Shown here: one piece after another, positions 137 through 8,417 of the stretch
Numbering within the stretch: the stretch's first letter is position 1
Layout: every line of letters begins with the position of its first letter
IMG/VR virus record: IMGVR_UViG_2703718848_000007
Origin: a virus
Taxonomy: Duplodnaviria > Heunggongvirae > Uroviricota > Caudoviricetes
Direction: 5' to 3' (one strand)
Length of the DNA: 8,958 nt
Notes under the pieces: generated by a model
What the model saw: the letters and a program-made list of their open reading frames with translations, nothing else
Told to the model about the DNA's origin: nothing
Database searches by the model: none
Translations under genes and position numbers: made by a program

Positions 137-835
137 TTACGGCTTCGTCAATACAGACTTAAATTTATCATTAAATGGCTTAATTTGAGGTAATGTTAAT
201 TTTTTTACAAATGTTTTTGTCGTTGTGTGAACTACGACGCTACCTTCTCCAAGAGTATTCCCCTGACATTCTTTTACGAACCCCTCATCAGTTACTGATG
301 CGGTAATGCTCTCTGGAATTATAAGCGTCAATATATCACCATAGTCTTCTAAAACATGCGGTAACTTACCATCTATAAGCTTATGCGGGTTTACATAAAT
401 ATCTAAGGATTTATTGTTAGAAAATCGCAACCTCACCGACTGAATGTTACTCCTAACTTGTCTTTTGTTTGTTATAGTTATTGATATCGCTGTATTTTTG
501 ATACTCGGCAAGTGCAATGATGGAATTAACACCATACTATATCGAATGTCAATCTCCTCTGAATTTTCCTTTGCCGAACGGAGTGCTAACAACAATGATA
601 TCGCAGCAGCAGAAAATGCTCCCAACCCAGAAACCCAAGTACCCAACATAGTTAAAAAAGGTATTGTAATTGATTGGAATTTAGTGTCCCCATTCAAACC
701 AACACCACTATAGCCCACATAACACCCTATAAAAAAGAATAGACAAGCCGTTATTAAAACAAAAAATAAATGAATAGAGCTTATCCTTTTAAATTTCAAC
801 AAAAAATCTTTCAAAATAATTTTACATCTCTTCAT
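137..835 (-). CDS. two-helix membrane protein with about 145-aa C-terminal domain predicted cytoplasmic; unknown family (cargo gene 2)
   Basis: 232-codon ORF in clearly AT-rich DNA. AGGA lies 7 nt upstream of the ATG at 835. Translation has a strongly basic N-terminus (MKRCKIILKDFLLKFKR), two hydrophobic helices (IHLFFVLITACLFFFIGCYVGY and ITIPFLTMLGTWVSGLGAFSAAAISLLLAL) and a beta-rich soluble C-terminal domain. No family recognised by eye. Confidence 0.7.
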   Translation of the reverse strand: MKRCKIILKDFLLKFKRISSIHLFFVLITACLFFFIGCYVGYSGVGLNGDTKFQSITIPFLTMLGTWVSGLGAFSAAAISLLLALRSAKENSEEIDIRYSMVLIPSLHLPSIKNTAISITITNKRQVRSNIQSVRLRFSNNKSLDIYVNPHKLIDGKLPHVLEDYGDILTLIIPESITASVTDEGFVKECQGNTLGEGSVVVHTTTKTFVKKLTLPQIKPFNDKFKSVLTKP

Positions 836-933: not shown

Positions 934-1665
934 TCACTCACTTATAATTGATACAACCTCACCTGTTTCTACATTGACACGCGCAGCAATCGTCTGTTTC
1001 ACCACTCCGCCATAAGCATTAGTTCCGCGAAACGTGGTTTTCACAATGGCATGCGGGTCTTTATTCAAAACCAGATGATATACCGTTGACACATGTTTAT
1101 AAGATGAATCATCGTTCATATTATCTTTAATTAGTTTTTCCAAAGGACGATAAGAACCATCCCAACCACTAAAATTACTCTGAAATGTATCAAGATTGAT
1201 TTTATTGTTTAGTGAATTCGGGTCATTTTCATAATCATTAAAGCACCACCCAAGAACATCACCGAGTTTCAACTCATCATCTTTGGTAAATGTATACTCA
1301 CTCATGCAGGCATAAAACGCATCTGACGCGGTGGCTGGAACTTCCTTAAAATCAATGTAACTATTCACAATATCGTGTCGTGTTTTCTTTGACTCGTTCC
1401 GATATTCCTTGAGTGTTTTTTCACCATATTCGAATGTTTTTTGGACTTTGTGTTCTGCAACGGTTGATGTTTCAGTTTTAGCAACTGGCTGGCTTTTTTC
1501 TGTTGGATAGAGTATTGAACCAATTATGCCCAATACAAAACCTCCTCCGAGATAAACCGCACTTGCACGTTTGCGGCTTGGCATTCGCACCAGTGATGGT
1601 TTGATTAACCCGATGAAAAAAGCAACGAAAAAAGCGAGTGATAGAAAAGCGATTACAGTATCCAT
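934..1665 (-). CDS. two-helix membrane protein with about 190-aa C-terminal domain predicted periplasmic; unknown family (cargo gene 1)
   Basis: The ORF track extends to 1689, but that codon is GTG. The in-frame ATG at 1665 has AAGGAT about 5 nt upstream, so 243 aa is preferred. Helices TVIAFLSLAFFVAFFIGLI and VYLGGGFVLGIIGSILY are separated by a basic loop KPSLVRMPSRKRASA (positive-inside rule puts the loop in the cytoplasm). The C-terminal domain has two Cys (FYACMSEY, LGWCFNDY). DNA is AT-rich. Confidence 0.7.
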   Translation of the reverse strand: MDTVIAFLSLAFFVAFFIGLIKPSLVRMPSRKRASAVYLGGGFVLGIIGSILYPTEKSQPVAKTETSTVAEHKVQKTFEYGEKTLKEYRNESKKTRHDIVNSYIDFKEVPATASDAFYACMSEYTFTKDDELKLGDVLGWCFNDYENDPNSLNNKINLDTFQSNFSGWDGSYRPLEKLIKDNMNDDSSYKHVSTVYHLVLNKDPHAIVKTTFRGTNAYGGVVKQTIAARVNVETGEVVSIISE

Positions 1666-1686
1666 AGCTATCCTTTTTGCATCATC

Positions 1687-1715
1687 CACATAAAAAATCG
1701 ACCTTATGTTAGCAA
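1687..1715 (-). promoter_or_regulatory. tentative sigma70-type promoter for cargo gene 1
   Basis: On the minus strand TTGCTA (plus 1710-1715), a 17-nt spacer, then TATGTG (plus 1687-1692), about 20 nt upstream of the ATG at 1665. Weak -10, by-eye call only. Confidence 0.25.
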
Positions 1716-1746
1716 CAGGAAGCTTACTTTTGAATATTTGTAAGTT

Positions 1747-1771
1747 GTTAGCTTGAGCTCTCCGAGCTAAC
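1747..1771. repeat. inverted repeat GTTAGCT / AGCTAAC around a GAGCTC-containing loop, at the AT-rich to GC-rich transition
   Basis: Read directly: 7-bp arms at 1747-1753 and 1765-1771 with an 11-nt loop; no U-tract on either side. Confidence 0.5.
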
Positions 1772-1851
1772 TCCTTTCAACCGTCAAAAAACAGCACCAT
1801 CACAGTAAAAATATGAATGTCAACTAACGCCTCGCTTCGCTCGTTGTTCAA

Positions 1852-1890
1852 CGCCGCCAGCCCTGAAAACAAGTTTCACGACTGGCGGCG
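1852..1890. repeat. 39-bp imperfect palindrome (about 17-bp arms, 2 mismatches)
   Basis: Left arm CGCCGCCAGCCCTGAAA pairs with right arm TTTCACGACTGGCGGCG; central loop ACAAG. Lies in the spacer between cargo gene 1 and the small gene downstream of A. Confidence 0.5.
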
Positions 1891-2100
1891 TTCTCTATCG
1901 TCTGCGTGGTGGTGGCGTAACTCTGGATTGACTGATATGGTTAAACCGCCCGTAATTATCCCGGACTATTTCGGCACACCCGACCAGCTCATCGGGCGTC
2001 AGATTTTCGTTGACCATAATCCGCTGTAAACGCTGAACAATAGCCATCAGCTTGATATTTTTAGTTTTATGGTGCGGTATCTCACTTGGCATTCTGTGCA

Positions 2101-2556
2101 TTATCCAAGCCACCCGTTTTGCTGTGCACGCCCCATCTGTTCATCTGAATAGTGCCATGCTCCATCCGTGGCAACCATTGCCCCGCCAGACATCCCCGTC
2201 TCTGGTTCATACATAACAGCAAGGCCGAGTTGATGCATAATTTCATGATTAATTCTGAATACCAGACCACGCTCACTAAGTTCTTTCCAGTTCACAATCT
2301 CATATGCGCCTGTATTAAGCCGCTCAATACTTAGCAAGACATAATCTTCCAGCCAGTCTGACAGGTCAGTAACATCTGTTATCCGGGCTTCAACCTTTCG
2401 CCCCGTATACACACCCTGCACCCATTCATGCAAAATCAACGTGTCCCCGCGCTCATAATTACGGTCATTTTTCCGAAACTCTGCGCGTTTCTTTCCTTCC
2501 AGCACAAGGTCGAAATATTTTGCGTGCAGCTTTACCTCGTGAATTTTTGCCATCAT
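2101..2556 (-). CDS. small protein with N-terminal ASCH/PUA-like (DUF3850-type) domain and a C-terminal segment carrying an HExxH motif
   Basis: Start ATG at 2556 overlaps the A stop codon (ATGA, plus 2553-2556), with GGAG 6-7 nt upstream. N-terminus KIHEVKLHAKYFDLVLEGKKRAEFRKNDRNYERGD matches the pattern I associate with DUF3850. C-terminal part contains NHEIMHQLG. The ORF track start at 2589 would overlap A by 37 nt and is less likely. Confidence 0.6.
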   Translation of the reverse strand: MMAKIHEVKLHAKYFDLVLEGKKRAEFRKNDRNYERGDTLILHEWVQGVYTGRKVEARITDVTDLSDWLEDYVLLSIERLNTGAYEIVNWKELSERGLVFRINHEIMHQLGLAVMYEPETGMSGGAMVATDGAWHYSDEQMGRAQQNGWLG

Positions 2557-4838
2557 GTCCACTCCATTACTGTTGAAAATCCCGGCCATTCATCAGCGAC
2601 CGGATACGTGAATTTTTTCCCGTCATAATTTACGGTTGCCCCACGCGCCAGCGCCTCAATCTCCCATCGCTGAGGCCTGATACCGTTCTGAGCAAGGTCA
2701 ACGCGGATACGGGTAATTTGCATTCGTTCCGGCCGGGTCAGTCTGGCCGATGGCGCTATTTCATGTGGTTTTAACGGGCTTCCGTTTCTTTGCTGGCGAT
2801 TTGGTCTTCTCAGTCCGTGTTTTAATGCTCCCCTGAGCGCCCTCACAACCTCCGGGTCATTCCATTCGATAACACCGTCATCTACCAGATTAAGCACTGC
2901 TGCGGCGTGTTCAGAAGGTGTGGGAGCCGGTAACGAAGCATCACCACCGGTGAGTTTTCCACAGTTATTGACAGGACTCCGAGGCGCGGCGATGCCGCTT
3001 TTTAAAGTCAAAGGCTCAACGACCGGAACTTTCGGCACAATGCGCCAATCCGTGGTTCTGGTGATATGAATATGACGCGCGCCGAGATGCGGTGCGTAAA
3101 TGCCGACCACTCTCTCGACTTCTTCCTCGTACTCGTTAACGTCATCCGACGGGCTACGGGCGACTCTGACAGTCTGACAATCGCGCGGAACATTTGCCCC
3201 ACCCTGCGCGCTGATATACAACGCAAAATCACCACTGTCTGCGGCGGCGCGTGCAGCCTCGACGCGCTCGTCAAACTCATCAGCAATGCTGACGCCGCGC
3301 GGCAATTTGCGTAGTTCACGGTAAGCCCCCATTGTCGGCAGGCCAACCGTTTTAAATTGCGGGATGCGCCACGTTGACGCCCATGCGGTAACAGCCGCTG
3401 CAGTGTCTTTCAGCGGCCTGCCGGTGTCGTTATCGAGCTGACCATCCAGTGCATAGCCGTCGATGTTTTTTGAAATGTATTTCGCGATATATCCCGCAGC
3501 ACCGCCCCGGTTAAGGTGTTTTGCCTGAAAACGGTTTCGCGCAGCTCCTCTTTCGTCTCCATCCTCTTTGAGCGCGTAGCGACGCATGATTTCGATAATC
3601 TGGTTACGCTGGCGTGGATTACAAAAAAGCATCATATGCCAGTGCGGCGTTCCGTCGTGGTGTGGCTCGACGACACGCAAACCGTAGACCTGTAAATCAT
3701 TATCCTTGAATGCCGTGCGCATCAGGCTCCAGATGCGGCAGAGATAACGCTGCGCATCCTTTGGATTAAATGCCTCATCGTTCCAGCCGTGATTAAGCTG
3801 AACGGTTTTACTTTCGCCTTTTCTGACCTGACGTGTCGGGTGATACTTTGACGGCGCGGTCAGCGTGATAAACATCCCCACATCACCCTCTGCGGCGGCG
3901 TAACGCTCAATACCGGCAATGGTGTTCATCAGCTCCATCCGGCGAATTTCAGGATTAGAAATACTGCCCATCACCTTACTGATAAGGTCGATGCGCTCGC
4001 CGGTTTCCCTGTTTTCGAGGTCACACGATTTAAGAAATTCCAGATTTGCCTGGCGGCGCGCACGCACATCACGAATGGCATGTTTACTGGCATAAGGAGA
4101 ACGGTCTTTATTGACCTCCCCGACAGCAATCAGTAACGCCTCATGCCAGCGCATACGCTGGCCTTTAAGCTGATGAGTCCACCACTCATCGTTAAACAGG
4201 CGGGCAATGGCAGAATATGCCTGCCTCGTGGTCATCTGCCCTTTACGGTATTTTTTCCAGTAAAGCGGGGAAATATTGAAAGCACGTGCAGCGCCAGCAA
4301 CATGACCATAGAGGTGAGCCTGCGCCTCATCCGTAAACAGCGATTCTTTTTCGCCATGTGCATCAACCCAGGCATCGCAGAGTTCCTCATACATCATGAA
4401 AAGCTGCGATGAGATACGGGCAGCAAACTTTTTCAGCTCCTTGTCATTCATCCCCGGCAGGCGCGCATACTGGTCGCGCTCTGCCAGAAACAGCAACGAC
4501 GCGTCGGTGTTCATTTCATGGCGCTGATTCACACGCTCAATGCGCGGCCATAAACGACGCTGAAAAGTGGATGTGAGGAAATAAAACCCGTGCACCGGGC
4601 TTTTATTGCGCCGGATGTAGTCATAGCGTGAAGTAAACAGCGAGCGCAAAAAGTAAGGCAGACGGTTAATCGTGGATAAAACCCCTTGCACCTGACGCAT
4701 CTCGTCACGTGTAAGGGGTCTTTCGCGCCCGACAGCCTCGCGTGGCGCGTTCCATGCATAAGCACCGGTAAACGCCTTACCGGTGCCTGCGGCAAATGCT
4801 GACGGAGGGACAAAACGCCCGGAGGCTTTAACGGCCAT
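2553..4838 (-). CDS. A: rolling-circle replication initiator (HUH endonuclease), phage P2 gpA family
   Basis: Translation contains the HUH-type motif PHWHMMLF and the paired-tyrosine motif GYIAKYISK. Starting at the in-frame ATG at 4838 gives 761 aa, matching the P2 gpA length as I recall it; the codon at 4880 used by the ORF track is TTG. Confidence 0.9.
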   Translation of the reverse strand: MAVKASGRFVPPSAFAAGTGKAFTGAYAWNAPREAVGRERPLTRDEMRQVQGVLSTINRLPYFLRSLFTSRYDYIRRNKSPVHGFYFLTSTFQRRLWPRIERVNQRHEMNTDASLLFLAERDQYARLPGMNDKELKKFAARISSQLFMMYEELCDAWVDAHGEKESLFTDEAQAHLYGHVAGAARAFNISPLYWKKYRKGQMTTRQAYSAIARLFNDEWWTHQLKGQRMRWHEALLIAVGEVNKDRSPYASKHAIRDVRARRQANLEFLKSCDLENRETGERIDLISKVMGSISNPEIRRMELMNTIAGIERYAAAEGDVGMFITLTAPSKYHPTRQVRKGESKTVQLNHGWNDEAFNPKDAQRYLCRIWSLMRTAFKDNDLQVYGLRVVEPHHDGTPHWHMMLFCNPRQRNQIIEIMRRYALKEDGDERGAARNRFQAKHLNRGGAAGYIAKYISKNIDGYALDGQLDNDTGRPLKDTAAAVTAWASTWRIPQFKTVGLPTMGAYRELRKLPRGVSIADEFDERVEAARAAADSGDFALYISAQGGANVPRDCQTVRVARSPSDDVNEYEEEVERVVGIYAPHLGARHIHITRTTDWRIVPKVPVVEPLTLKSGIAAPRSPVNNCGKLTGGDASLPAPTPSEHAAAVLNLVDDGVIEWNDPEVVRALRGALKHGLRRPNRQQRNGSPLKPHEIAPSARLTRPERMQITRIRVDLAQNGIRPQRWEIEALARGATVNYDGKKFTYPVADEWPGFSTVMEWT

Positions 4839-5103
4839 ATGAGCCAAAAGCCTCTGAACAACGCCTGCTGAGTTGCTCAACCTGCGCGTTTAAATCAGCA
4901 AAAGACTTTGCGCTTCCGGTCAGAATATCGTGATGCATCAGGCCGGAAACGAGCTGGCTTAATTTCGGATAATAACCAACCACCGCCAGCCATTCCTGAC
5001 CGGCGTTTTTACCGCTTTCCGCTCTCTTTTTCTCGTGGAGAATAAACTGAAAGCTGTCACTGGTAACGACATAACGTTCGCCAATTTCAATACGAATACT
5101 CAT
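4828..5103 (-). CDS. P2 orf83-like early protein, function unknown
   Basis: 91-aa ORF; its ATG overlaps the stop of the upstream gene (ATGA at 5100-5103) and its end overlaps the A start by 11 nt. Position immediately upstream of A as in P2. Confidence 0.7.
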   Translation of the reverse strand: MSIRIEIGERYVVTSDSFQFILHEKKRAESGKNAGQEWLAVVGYYPKLSQLVSGLMHHDILTGSAKSFADLNAQVEQLSRRCSEAFGSYGR

Positions 5104-6867: not shown

Positions 6868-6988
6868 CTGCTACGATTCTCCCTTAGTGCTTCTAATGGC
6901 TCCTAATGGCTAATTATTGCCTAAAAGGATAACTCCAGAAGCACAACATTTCACACTATCAGCAAGAAATTACGCAATCGGAGTAATT
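6868..6988. promoter_or_regulatory. C/cox immunity switch region (divergent early and repressor promoters) with direct-repeat operator
   Basis: 121-bp spacer between divergent cox and C. Perfect direct repeat CTAATGGCT at 6893-6901 and 6903-6911, one helical turn apart. P2-type repressors are known to bind direct repeats. Promoter hexamers not confidently mapped. Confidence 0.6.
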
Positions 6989-7288
6989 ATGTCAATAGAC
7001 GTTTCGGAGAAGTTGAAGCTAATCCGTGAATCTGAAAGGTTAAACCGTAAAGAATTCAGTGAATTAACTGGTGTAGCCTACAGCTCACTTTCGAGCTATG
7101 AGAGCCGGTCAAAAAACGCTGGAGTTGAAGCCATAATGAAGGTCTTACAACATCCTAGATTTACTAAATATACTTTGTGGTTCATGACTGATCAGGTAGC
7201 TCCAGAAGCCGGGCAAATTGCGCCCGCTCTCGCACACTTTGGGCAAAACGAAACAACGTCGCCCCACTCCGGTCAAAAGACTGGTTAA
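6989..7288 (+). CDS. C: immunity repressor C (P2-type)
   Basis: Track ORF starts at 6917, but the in-frame ATG at 6989 has GGAG 5 nt upstream and gives 99 aa, matching P2 C length as I recall. Divergent from cox and upstream of int. Confidence 0.8.
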   Translation: MSIDVSEKLKLIRESERLNRKEFSELTGVAYSSLSSYESRSKNAGVEAIMKVLQHPRFTKYTLWFMTDQVAPEAGQIAPALAHFGQNETTSPHSGQKTG

Positions 7289-7403: not shown

Positions 7404-8417
7404 ATGGCAATCAAAAAACTCGATGATGGTCGATATGAAGTGGACATCCGCCCTACTGGACGTAACGGAAAACGCATCCGTAGGAAGTTTGATAAGAAAA
7501 GCGAAGCTGTCGCTTTCGAAAAATACACGTTGTACAACCACCACAATAAAGAATGGCTATCAAAACCAACAGACAAACGACGTCTGTCGGAACTGACACA
7601 GATCTGGTGGGATTTAAAGGGTAAACACGAAGAGCATGGGAAATCTAATCTTGGAAAAATTGAAATCTTCACAAAAATAACGAATGACCCATGCGCATTT
7701 CAAATCACGAAATCCCTTATCAGCCAGTACTGCGCCACCCGAAGAAGTCAGGGTATTAAACCTTCGAGTATCAATCGTGATTTAACATGTATTAGCGGCA
7801 TGTTTACAGCCCTGATTGAAGCGGAGTTATTCTTTGGTGAGCACCCTATCAGAGGGACAAAGAGGCTTAAGGAGGAAAAACCAGAAACAGGCTATCTCAC
7901 ACAGGAAGAAATTGCCTTACTGCTTGCAGCACTTGACGGCGACAATAAAAAGATTGCGATTCTTTGCCTGAGTACAGGAGCACGTTGGGGAGAAGCAGCT
8001 CGTTTGAAAGCAGAAAATATCATCCATAACCGCGTCACGTTTGTTAAAACGAAAACAAACAAACCACGCACCGTCCCGATTTCAGAGGCTGTTGCCAAAA
8101 TGATCGCGGATAACAAACGAGGTTTTTTATTCCCTGATGCTGATTACCCTCGCTTCAGACGAACAATGAAAGCAATAAAACCGGATTTGCCAATGGGGCA
8201 AGCCACACATGCACTAAGGCACAGCTTTGCCACTCATTTCATGATTAATGGAGGAAGTATTATCACGCTACAACGGATACTAGGTCACACGCGGATTGAG
8301 CAAACTATGGTTTACGCTCATTTTGCGCCAGAGTACCTTCAGGACGCCATTTCTCTTAATCCGCTAAGAGGTGGTACTGAGGCCGAGAGTGTCCACACAG
8401 TGTCCACAGTAGAGTAA
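7404..8417 (+). CDS. int: tyrosine recombinase integrase, P2 Int family
   Basis: 337 aa. C-terminal catalytic signature HALRHSFATHF ... LGHTRIEQTMVYAHF (His-x-x-Arg box and Tyr nucleophile). GGAGGG 7 nt upstream of the ATG. Adjacent to the att core. Confidence 0.9.
   Translation: MAIKKLDDGRYEVDIRPTGRNGKRIRRKFDKKSEAVAFEKYTLYNHHNKEWLSKPTDKRRLSELTQIWWDLKGKHEEHGKSNLGKIEIFTKITNDPCAFQITKSLISQYCATRRSQGIKPSSINRDLTCISGMFTALIEAELFFGEHPIRGTKRLKEEKPETGYLTQEEIALLLAALDGDNKKIAILCLSTGARWGEAARLKAENIIHNRVTFVKTKTNKPRTVPISEAVAKMIADNKRGFLFPDADYPRFRRTMKAIKPDLPMGQATHALRHSFATHFMINGGSIITLQRILGHTRIEQTMVYAHFAPEYLQDAISLNPLRGGTEAESVHTVSTVE
8390..8408. repeat. two direct repeats of TGTCCACA (TGTGGACA on the other strand), probable Int arm-type binding sites
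   Basis: Copies at 8390-8397 and 8401-8408, 11 bp apart, inside the last codons of int (encoding HTVSTV). TGTGGACA is the P2 Int arm-site consensus as I recall it. Confidence 0.5.

Follow-up and report, generated by a model that had tools for sequence, protein, structure and literature searches.

What does a small membrane-anchored protein do for a prophage that carries its gene in a defence hotspot, and is such a gene a newcomer at this site? This question is raised by an open reading frame (ORF) at 934-1665 on the minus strand of a stretch of 8,958 nucleotides from the viral record IMGVR_UViG_2703718848_000007 (Caudoviricetes), which is referred to below as the window. Gene order and Pfam matches identify the whole window as the right arm of a P2-type (Peduovirus) prophage. 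A preliminary description of the ORF, made from the DNA letters, had taken it for novel hotspot cargo encoding a hairpin-anchored protein with a probable periplasmic domain. In this study, we identify it by its protein sequence as an orthologue of orf97 of coliphage 186, a gene that was named in 1996 and that in most relatives belongs to a backbone SOS operon. The encoded protein probably, though by no means surely, acts as a single-protein superinfection-exclusion factor on the periplasmic face of the inner membrane.

Results

The gene is an orthologue of orf97 of coliphage 186

In a BLASTP comparison with Orf97 of phage 186 (AAC34191.1), 190 of 241 positions were identical (79%), with 241 of the 243 residues aligned (E 1e-150), and the protein also matched the profile phrog_3403. 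Both proteins are 243 amino acids long and share the hairpin, the cysteines and the C-terminal domain. The window protein carries the full family architecture, namely the GLIKP...MPxRKR hairpin, the cysteine pair and the WDGSYRPLE...FRGTNAYGG module. Both genes also lie on the corresponding genome arm, between gene A and the cos/portal region and on the strand of A. Homologues of orf97 were detected by tblastn in 33 phage records, most of them P2/186-like (Peduoviridae) and including 186 itself; several of the matches were more distant.

The GenBank record of the 186 region (U32222.1; Brumby et al., 1996, Virology 219:105) notes for orf97 that 'expression from plasmid blocks 186 infection'. 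This infection-blocking phenotype belongs to the 186 allele. The same record gives the order LexA-repressed promoter p95, antirepressor gene tum, terminator t95a, orf97 and terminator t95b, and it describes p95 as responsible for 'SOS-dependent transcription of SOS operon' and t95a as causing 'partial termination of p95 transcript'.

The interval between genes A and Q is the hotspot of P2-type prophages (Rousset et al., 2022; PMC9122126), so the placement of the gene in a defence hotspot had been recognized correctly. In the same survey the Escherichia coli allele is listed as P2-hotspot system #12, with 210 loci, no domain and the comment '2 TM' (two transmembrane segments); it was thus found in 210 of 18,150 P2-type loci and is absent from the table of tested systems (Table S2) (Rousset et al., 2022; PMC9122126). 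The protein was not found in the text supplements of the DefensePredictor paper.

Read from a GTG codon, the ORF would span 934..1689 (minus strand) and encode 251 amino acids, compared with 243 from the ATG at 1665. The ATG at 1665 is taken as the start, as had been proposed, because a Shine-Dalgarno sequence (AAAGGA) lies 7 nucleotides 5' of it, because the phrog_3403 profile aligns with residues 1-242 over a 243-position model (E 3.5e-145), because nearly all homologues in Enterobacterales relatives are 243 amino acids long and because the annotation of 186 orf97 begins at the equivalent ATG. The ratio of nonsynonymous to synonymous substitution rates (dN/dS), calculated from 75 distinct nucleotide alleles, was 0.11 for the whole gene. 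By region it amounted to 0.08 in the hairpin, 0.36 in the linker, 0.12 in the helical part and 0.07 in the sheet part, which makes the linker the fastest-evolving region of the protein. The ORF at 934-1665 is a genuine gene under purifying selection.

Architecture and membrane topology

The hydropathy profile contains two hydrophobic segments, at about residues 3-21 and 37-53, which follow a short N-terminus (MDT) and enclose the loop KPSLVRMPSRKRASA (residues 22-36) with five Lys/Arg and no Asp/Glu residues. The two hydrophobic helices around a very basic loop that had been described at the outset were thus recovered. The flank behind the second transmembrane (TM) helix has a net charge of 0. 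The predicted layout is an outside N-terminus, TM1 (~3-21), a basic cytoplasmic loop (22-36), TM2 (~37-53), a disordered linker (55-77), a helical subdomain (~79-155) and an alpha/beta subdomain (~160-242). The linker of ~23 residues is rich in Thr, Lys and Glu, in agreement with the Lys/Glu-rich linker noted before, and is modelled as disordered, with a predicted local distance difference test score (pLDDT) below 50 at residues 56-73. A C-terminal domain of roughly 190 residues had been proposed; the domain is present, and its folded part comprises ~165 residues (79-243), since the larger figure includes the linker.

According to the positive-inside rule, the loop would lie inside and both ends outside. 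Homologues of residues 79-241 occur behind lipoprotein signals (P0128, P0133), behind a cytoplasmic zinc ribbon and one TM helix (P0122, P0127, P0165) and, in further cases, behind other single anchors. Among 216 homologues with the WDGS[HY] motif, a hydrophobic signal or anchor precedes the domain in 184, and a TM segment follows it in one. The other 32 are for the most part visibly cut short or carry a signal under the threshold used. Because of the charge bias and of the lipoprotein and single-TM anchors on homologues, the C-terminal domain is almost certainly periplasmic, which agrees with the extracytoplasmic placement suggested earlier. The charge bias gave no cytoplasmic placement of this domain, and a match to a housekeeping family was looked for and not found.

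The topology of the E. coli leader peptidase LepB is that of an N-out protein with two helices and a basic cytoplasmic loop. The predicted arrangement of Orf97 resembles it in the order of N-out terminus, helix 1, positive cytoplasmic loop, helix 2 and large periplasmic C-terminal domain. LepB is unrelated to Orf97 in sequence and function, and the analogy is confined to membrane insertion.

The hairpin core and basic loop (residues 20-54) are encoded at 1504..1608 on the minus strand, as delimited by the alignment and the dN/dS analysis. The family motif is GLIKPxxVxMPxRKRSS, and residues F16, G19, L20, P23, V26, M28 and R31 are invariant. Judged from the alignment, the conservation of the hairpin (dN/dS 0.08, seven invariant residues) exceeds the need of a passive anchor.

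The GLIKP two-helix hairpin (residues 1-54; 1504-1665, minus strand) was also observed as a reusable module. Matches of phrog_28655 and phrog_23546 are confined to the hairpin part, and one protein (P0268) carries a tandem pair of GLIKP hairpins ahead of an unrelated C-terminal domain.

The cysteine pair and the predicted fold

The protein contains exactly two cysteines, C120 and C141, about 20 residues apart as had been stated, and both are invariant in a 40-sequence Enterobacterales alignment. Across homologues, both cysteines are present in 190 sequences, neither in 30 and a single one in 1, and losses are typically to Phe or Ala. In the AlphaFold2 model the two residues lie seven positions each side of the turn that joins helices 111-127 and 134-147. 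Since the cysteines are kept or lost together, a C120-C141 disulfide bridging these helices (codons at 1243..1308, minus strand) is likely; it had been raised as a possibility before. The cysteine pattern and the modelled geometry are consistent with an oxidised periplasmic domain.

The AlphaFold2 model, built with the family alignment, has a mean pLDDT of 82.6 and values above 90 across most of residues 80-243. In this model the helical part appears HdeA-like, and the resemblance is in fold only: the identity to HdeA/HdeB (PDB 1bg8, 4xvv) is 5-16%. Like Orf97 in its predicted state, HdeA and HdeB are periplasmic and have one disulfide. They differ from Orf97 in that their cysteines occupy other positions of the fold and in that Orf97 has a membrane anchor and a second subdomain. 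Membership of the HdeA family was rejected: Pfam gave no match at E<=1, and when the family alignment was compared by hhalign with E. coli HdeA, the sequence of which was verified against 1bg8, the probability was 0.3%.

The last ~85 residues are modelled as a helix and a four-stranded antiparallel sheet. A Foldseek search of the PDB with residues ~160-242 gave zero matches at E<=0.001 and weak NTF2-like matches, the best being 3er7 (E 0.085, probability 0.75). Structural matches in BFVD were to uncharacterised proteins and to lipoproteins, including a phage lipoprotein. A sequence-profile search of the PDB with the Orf97 homologue yielded nothing, and protein scans against Pfam, NCBIfam and PADLOC-DB v2 gave no match (PADLOC, 0 families at E<=1).

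The C-terminal module of ~80 residues (residues ~160-243; 934-1185, minus strand), for which neither Pfam nor NCBIfam has a model, was found with the pattern WDGS[HY]...MNDPDSYEHV...FRGKNAFGG in many phyla. A whole-library search with hidden Markov models retrieved 2789 related cluster representatives (E<=0.001), of which 1286 reached E<=1e-10. Those at greater distance mostly match the profile in its C-terminal module (e.g. P0216, P0237). In very many cases a zinc ribbon and a TM helix precede the module in the same protein. A locus from Xenorhabdus sp. (L019, 6869-7618) contains the form with zinc ribbon and one TM helix beside ogr, gpD and tail genes, and an Oxalobacter metagenome-assembled genome (L020, 6938-7522) contains a lipoprotein form followed by two more small lipoprotein genes. 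For distant homologues with the short domain, the neighbourhoods (an AbiJ-like gene with a transposase, an integrase, housekeeping genes) were uninformative.

Genomic settings and the boundary element

In the window, the integrase gene (7404-8417, plus strand) and a repressor-like gene (6917-7288, plus strand) are followed by the early genes. Replication gene A (2553-4880, minus strand; Pfam Phage_GPA, E 6e-123) is accompanied by a gene for a P2 orf91-like protein with DUF3850/ASCH and DUF7415 domains (2101-2589, minus strand), a small conserved ORF of 68-72 amino acids (1895-2113, minus strand), the orf97 homologue, and a second small membrane-protein gene (137-835, minus strand; 232 amino acids, 2-TM). 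In related phage and E. coli records the sequence continues with cos and then the portal gene Q. Among IMG/VR loci, gpA lies upstream in 76 of 80, the other four being truncated upstream, and portal gene Q lies downstream in 78 of 80.

A total of 89 related loci, window included, were classed by their flanks into 66 186-like and 23 P2-like loci. In the 186-like setting, tum precedes orf97, a LexA box (CTGT-N8-ACAG) lies ~558 nucleotides 5' of it and a strong t95a hairpin (RNA fold z-scores -3.7 and -3.9) is found ~30 nucleotides before its start. In most of these loci an element of ~74 base pairs (bp) begins 14-48 nucleotides past the orf97 stop, and variable cargo lies beyond it. Thus, in most relatives orf97 belongs together with tum to an SOS operon of the backbone, which lies upstream of the hotspot boundary. 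In the P2-like setting the ~74-bp element lies 5' of orf97, tum is cut to its last ~25 nucleotides, t95a is decayed and the LexA box is missing. Four loci (L040, L041, L047 and L048) carry the element on both sides of orf97.

In the window, this element occupies 1822..1895 (minus strand), has a 9-bp inverted repeat (CGCCGCCAG...CTGGCGGCG) and is conserved in P2, 186 and relatives. The homology to P2 ends exactly at 1822. The element is probably a recombination anchor and the left boundary of the hotspot. Between it and the gene lies a leader (1666..1821, minus strand) that travels with the gene in P2-type loci and comprises the AAAGGA Shine-Dalgarno sequence, a degenerate t95a region and the ~25-nucleotide tum remnant. 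In 186, orf97 is second in the operon that LexA represses at p95, where it follows tum and t95a and precedes the boundary element. The window gene, by comparison, lacks tum and the LexA box and is located past the boundary element, in the hotspot, with another cargo gene after it. No LexA box within 3 mismatches was found upstream of the window gene, and a consensus promoter scan 5' of it gave nothing convincing; a candidate promoter at the junction (TTGACA at 1823-1818, 13 nucleotides, TGT-GATGGT) is weak and failed the scan. Most simply, recombination at the ~74-bp element would have transferred orf97 out of an SOS operon of the 186 type to the P2 hotspot, with loss of its regulation. In the P2-type lineage, the genes at 2101-2589 and 1895-2113 (both minus strand) hold the position that tum has in 186-type phages.

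Other prophages place the gene differently. It lies between a 186-type CI repressor gene and the integrase gene in a Brenneria prophage, after a C-like repressor gene and before the integrase gene in a Mixta prophage, and beside an S24 repressor gene in a Vibrio prophage. Such placements next to repressor and integrase genes are typical of lysogen-expressed exclusion genes.

Distribution and the downstream neighbour

The gene is almost exclusively phage-borne. It was found in 84 of 5426 complete E. coli genomes, each time with exactly one other gene after it. Among 78 IMG/VR loci it is the sole hotspot gene before Q in 10, and in the remaining loci about 20 unrelated families lie downstream. 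One of these is a reverse-transcriptase-like ORF whose N-terminus resembles, by eye, that of RT-Abi-P2 (Rousset et al., 2022, Table S5B). In the 68 IMG/VR loci with a gene after orf97 (among L028-L107), this gene encodes a membrane protein in most cases, including the 2-TM family (21 loci), a 260-residue tail-anchored family (18 loci) and a 311-residue family with a C-terminal TM segment (6 loci).

The protein encoded at 137-835 in the window has a basic N-terminus, two TM segments and a cytoplasmic C-terminal domain of ~145 residues; it matches phrog_23429/phrog_16957 and has no match in Pfam or PADLOC. Its 2-TM family is extremely diverse, with five or six diverged variants (23-39% identity) and six subclusters at <60% identity behind near-identical orf97, and the S164-type variant is untested hotspot system #30 with 119 loci (Rousset et al., 2022; PMC9122126). 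In 22 of 40 loci the 2-TM family occurs without orf97, comprising 4 P2 hotspots and 18 non-P2 contexts. Because of the lone loci, the ~20 unrelated partners and the 2-TM family without orf97, orf97 is regarded as an autonomous unit, and the gene at 137-835 is separate, independently mobile cargo. A hairpin, TGCCAGCATAAATACTGGCA, was also observed between the two genes at 893-912. The T-run needed for an intrinsic terminator is on the plus strand, opposite both genes, and the coding strand has no U-run.

Discussion

The question of function is best approached from the phenotype of the 186 orthologue. Its recorded infection block, the extracytoplasmic tethered layout, the autonomy of the gene and its exclusion-type placements in other prophages are the reasons why superinfection exclusion by a single protein seems to us the probable role of Orf97. 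In general, membrane-tethered exclusion proteins such as lactococcal Sie2009, Ltp of Streptococcus thermophilus, Imm and Sp of T4, gp15 of HK97, Llp of T5 and Cor of phi80/N15 are small, phage-encoded, anchored in or to the cytoplasmic membrane, and act alone to block infection. Orf97 resembles them as a phage-encoded, membrane-tethered protein whose working part would lie outside the cytoplasm, as charge bias and homologue anchors suggest. As with sie2009, some members of the orf97 family lie between repressor and integrase genes. In contrast to these proteins, Orf97 has a leader-peptidase-like two-helix hairpin, and the orf97 gene of 186 is SOS-induced and not constitutively expressed in the lysogen.

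Orf97 would insert like leader peptidase, with the short N-terminus outside, helix 1, the basic loop in the cytoplasm and helix 2, so that the ~165-residue two-part domain is held in the periplasm on a flexible tether of ~23 residues. The first part would be a small helical bundle pinned by C120-C141, and the second a helix with a four-stranded sheet. Phages of the 186/P2 type, and perhaps others, would be stopped at the envelope stage after adsorption. This would likely be achieved by binding a conserved partner that is needed for tail-tip penetration or for DNA passage across the periplasm and inner membrane. Candidates are a component of the inner membrane or periplasm of the host and a conserved part of the phage tip or tape measure. 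The uniform purifying selection (dN/dS 0.11) suggests such a conserved partner and argues against a fast-evolving, arms-race sensor. In 186, orf97 would be switched on together with Tum upon LexA inactivation and would protect the induced cell once CI immunity is lifted. In the P2-type prophage, where LexA control is lost, expression probably relies on read-through or on the gene's own weak promoter. The guess that the envelope-exposed domain blocks phage DNA entry or senses injection held in part: the 186 GenBank note is in line with anti-phage activity at the envelope, whereas the DNA-entry step and the sensing of injection were left without support.

Several points weigh against an exclusion role. 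The sole functional evidence is a one-line GenBank note on the 186 orthologue, and membrane proteins over-produced from a plasmid can interfere with infection in a non-specific way. Neither homology nor a fold match to a characterised exclusion protein or defence system was obtained in Pfam, NCBIfam, PADLOC and PHROG or among the listed PDB and BFVD matches. The topology is inferred from charge bias and from the anchors of homologues. Expression in this prophage is unproven, because the promoter scan and the LexA-box search were negative. Moreover, many defence genes do not show such strong purifying selection, which would also suit a role in the phage's own cycle.

We consider such a role unlikely. 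As the partner of Tum, Orf97 might prepare or protect the envelope of the induced cell, for example by timing lysis, by buffering envelope stress or by sparing progeny from loss on cell debris, and the block of 186 would be a side effect. The LexA-controlled tum operon in 186 and in 66 of the 89 loci, upstream of the hotspot boundary, points in this direction, as do the dN/dS of 0.11, the chaperone-like fold (HdeA/HdeB) predicted for the helical part and the amino-acid identity of orf97 between the lineages (78-80%), which is near that of the portal (~80%) and far above that of gpA (42%). However, the gene is accessory, being present in 84 of 5426 complete E. coli genomes and 210 of 18,150 P2-type loci (Rousset et al., 2022), and the 186 record notes an infection block and not an induction defect. 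It is also hard to reconcile with an induction role that orf97 persists and spreads without tum and LexA in P2 hotspots and in repressor-integrase modules. Slightly less probable again is a membrane-acting abortive-infection effector, or plain toxicity on over-production, in which the hairpin perturbs the membrane and infected cells fail to yield phage. The 186 phenotype was obtained by expression from a plasmid, the hairpin is conserved beyond what a passive anchor would need (invariant residues, dN/dS 0.08) and is also found, as a module, in further families of phage proteins, and many TM proteins of the hotspot are presumed to act as suicide effectors (Rousset et al., 2022; PMC9122126). Orf97 has just two TM helices, however, and its conserved mass is mostly in the folded domain predicted to be periplasmic. 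That the same domain occurs on lipoproteins and single-pass proteins without the hairpin implies that the soluble domain carries the function; a cytoplasmic sensor domain is missing, and the gene stands alone in 10 of 78 loci.

Two further explanations are very improbable. One of them, in which orf97 and the downstream 2-TM gene (137-835) form a two-gene membrane system, was rejected, since IMG/VR loci show each gene without the other. The close linkage in E. coli had made it attractive: among the matches listed for the downstream gene (60 of 87 for the S164-type, 60 of 84 for the IHE3034-type), none was without orf97, the five or six 2-TM variants (23-39% identity) all follow near-identical orf97, and downstream partners are mostly membrane proteins. 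Yet 10 of 78 viral loci and several genomes have orf97 by itself, about 20 unrelated families trail it, the 2-TM family is found without it in 4 P2 hotspots and 18 non-P2 contexts, the boundary element separates both genes in 186-like loci, and the two are listed as separate single-gene systems, #12 and #30 (Rousset et al., 2022). The E. coli linkage is best explained by orf97 serving as the left homology arm for cassette exchange. We attach just as little weight to a lysogenic conversion that benefits the host, in which a periplasmic HdeA-like chaperone would aid stress survival, unrelated to phages. A periplasmic protein with a disulfide would suit this role, and orf97 is carried by strains of extraintestinal pathogenic E. 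coli, IHE3034 and APEC O78 among them. Against it stand the missing sequence relationship to HdeA (no Pfam match; hhalign 0.3%), the membrane tether and fused second domain of Orf97, the phage phenotype in the 186 record and the almost exclusively phage-borne distribution.

Superinfection exclusion thus remains the role that we favor for Orf97. It is tempting to go further and speculate, as an outside chance, that the module WDGS[HY]..L..IK..MNDPDSYEHV..TTFRGKNAFGGVVK, with or without the HdeA-like part, is the working unit of a huge unannotated family (at least 2789 clusters at 50% identity, in many phyla). Its members would always be tethered outside the cytoplasm, by a hairpin, a lipid or a zinc ribbon and one TM helix, and would generally serve to keep phage genomes from entering, by occupying a conserved component of the envelope. 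Orf97 would then be the first member with a phenotype, and the GLIKP hairpin a second, reusable targeting module.

Conclusions

The preliminary description was accurate and its functional guess reasonable, but the gene it presented was a rediscovery of a named one. New in this study are the identity with 186 orf97, the link to system #12, the architecture, the comparisons that bear on the periplasm and the disulfide, the relocation from SOS operon to hotspot and the size of the uncurated family. The locus provides a clear example of a gene that moved from a regulated backbone SOS operon into a defence hotspot at a short boundary element, with loss of regulation. The practical value is modest unless the mechanism proves general. 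The results also draw attention to a widespread extracytoplasmic domain that lies outside every curated library. In summary, this study links an abundant unnamed hotspot gene (#12) to a recorded phage-blocking phenotype and to a concrete architecture, and makes the function of orf97 directly testable.

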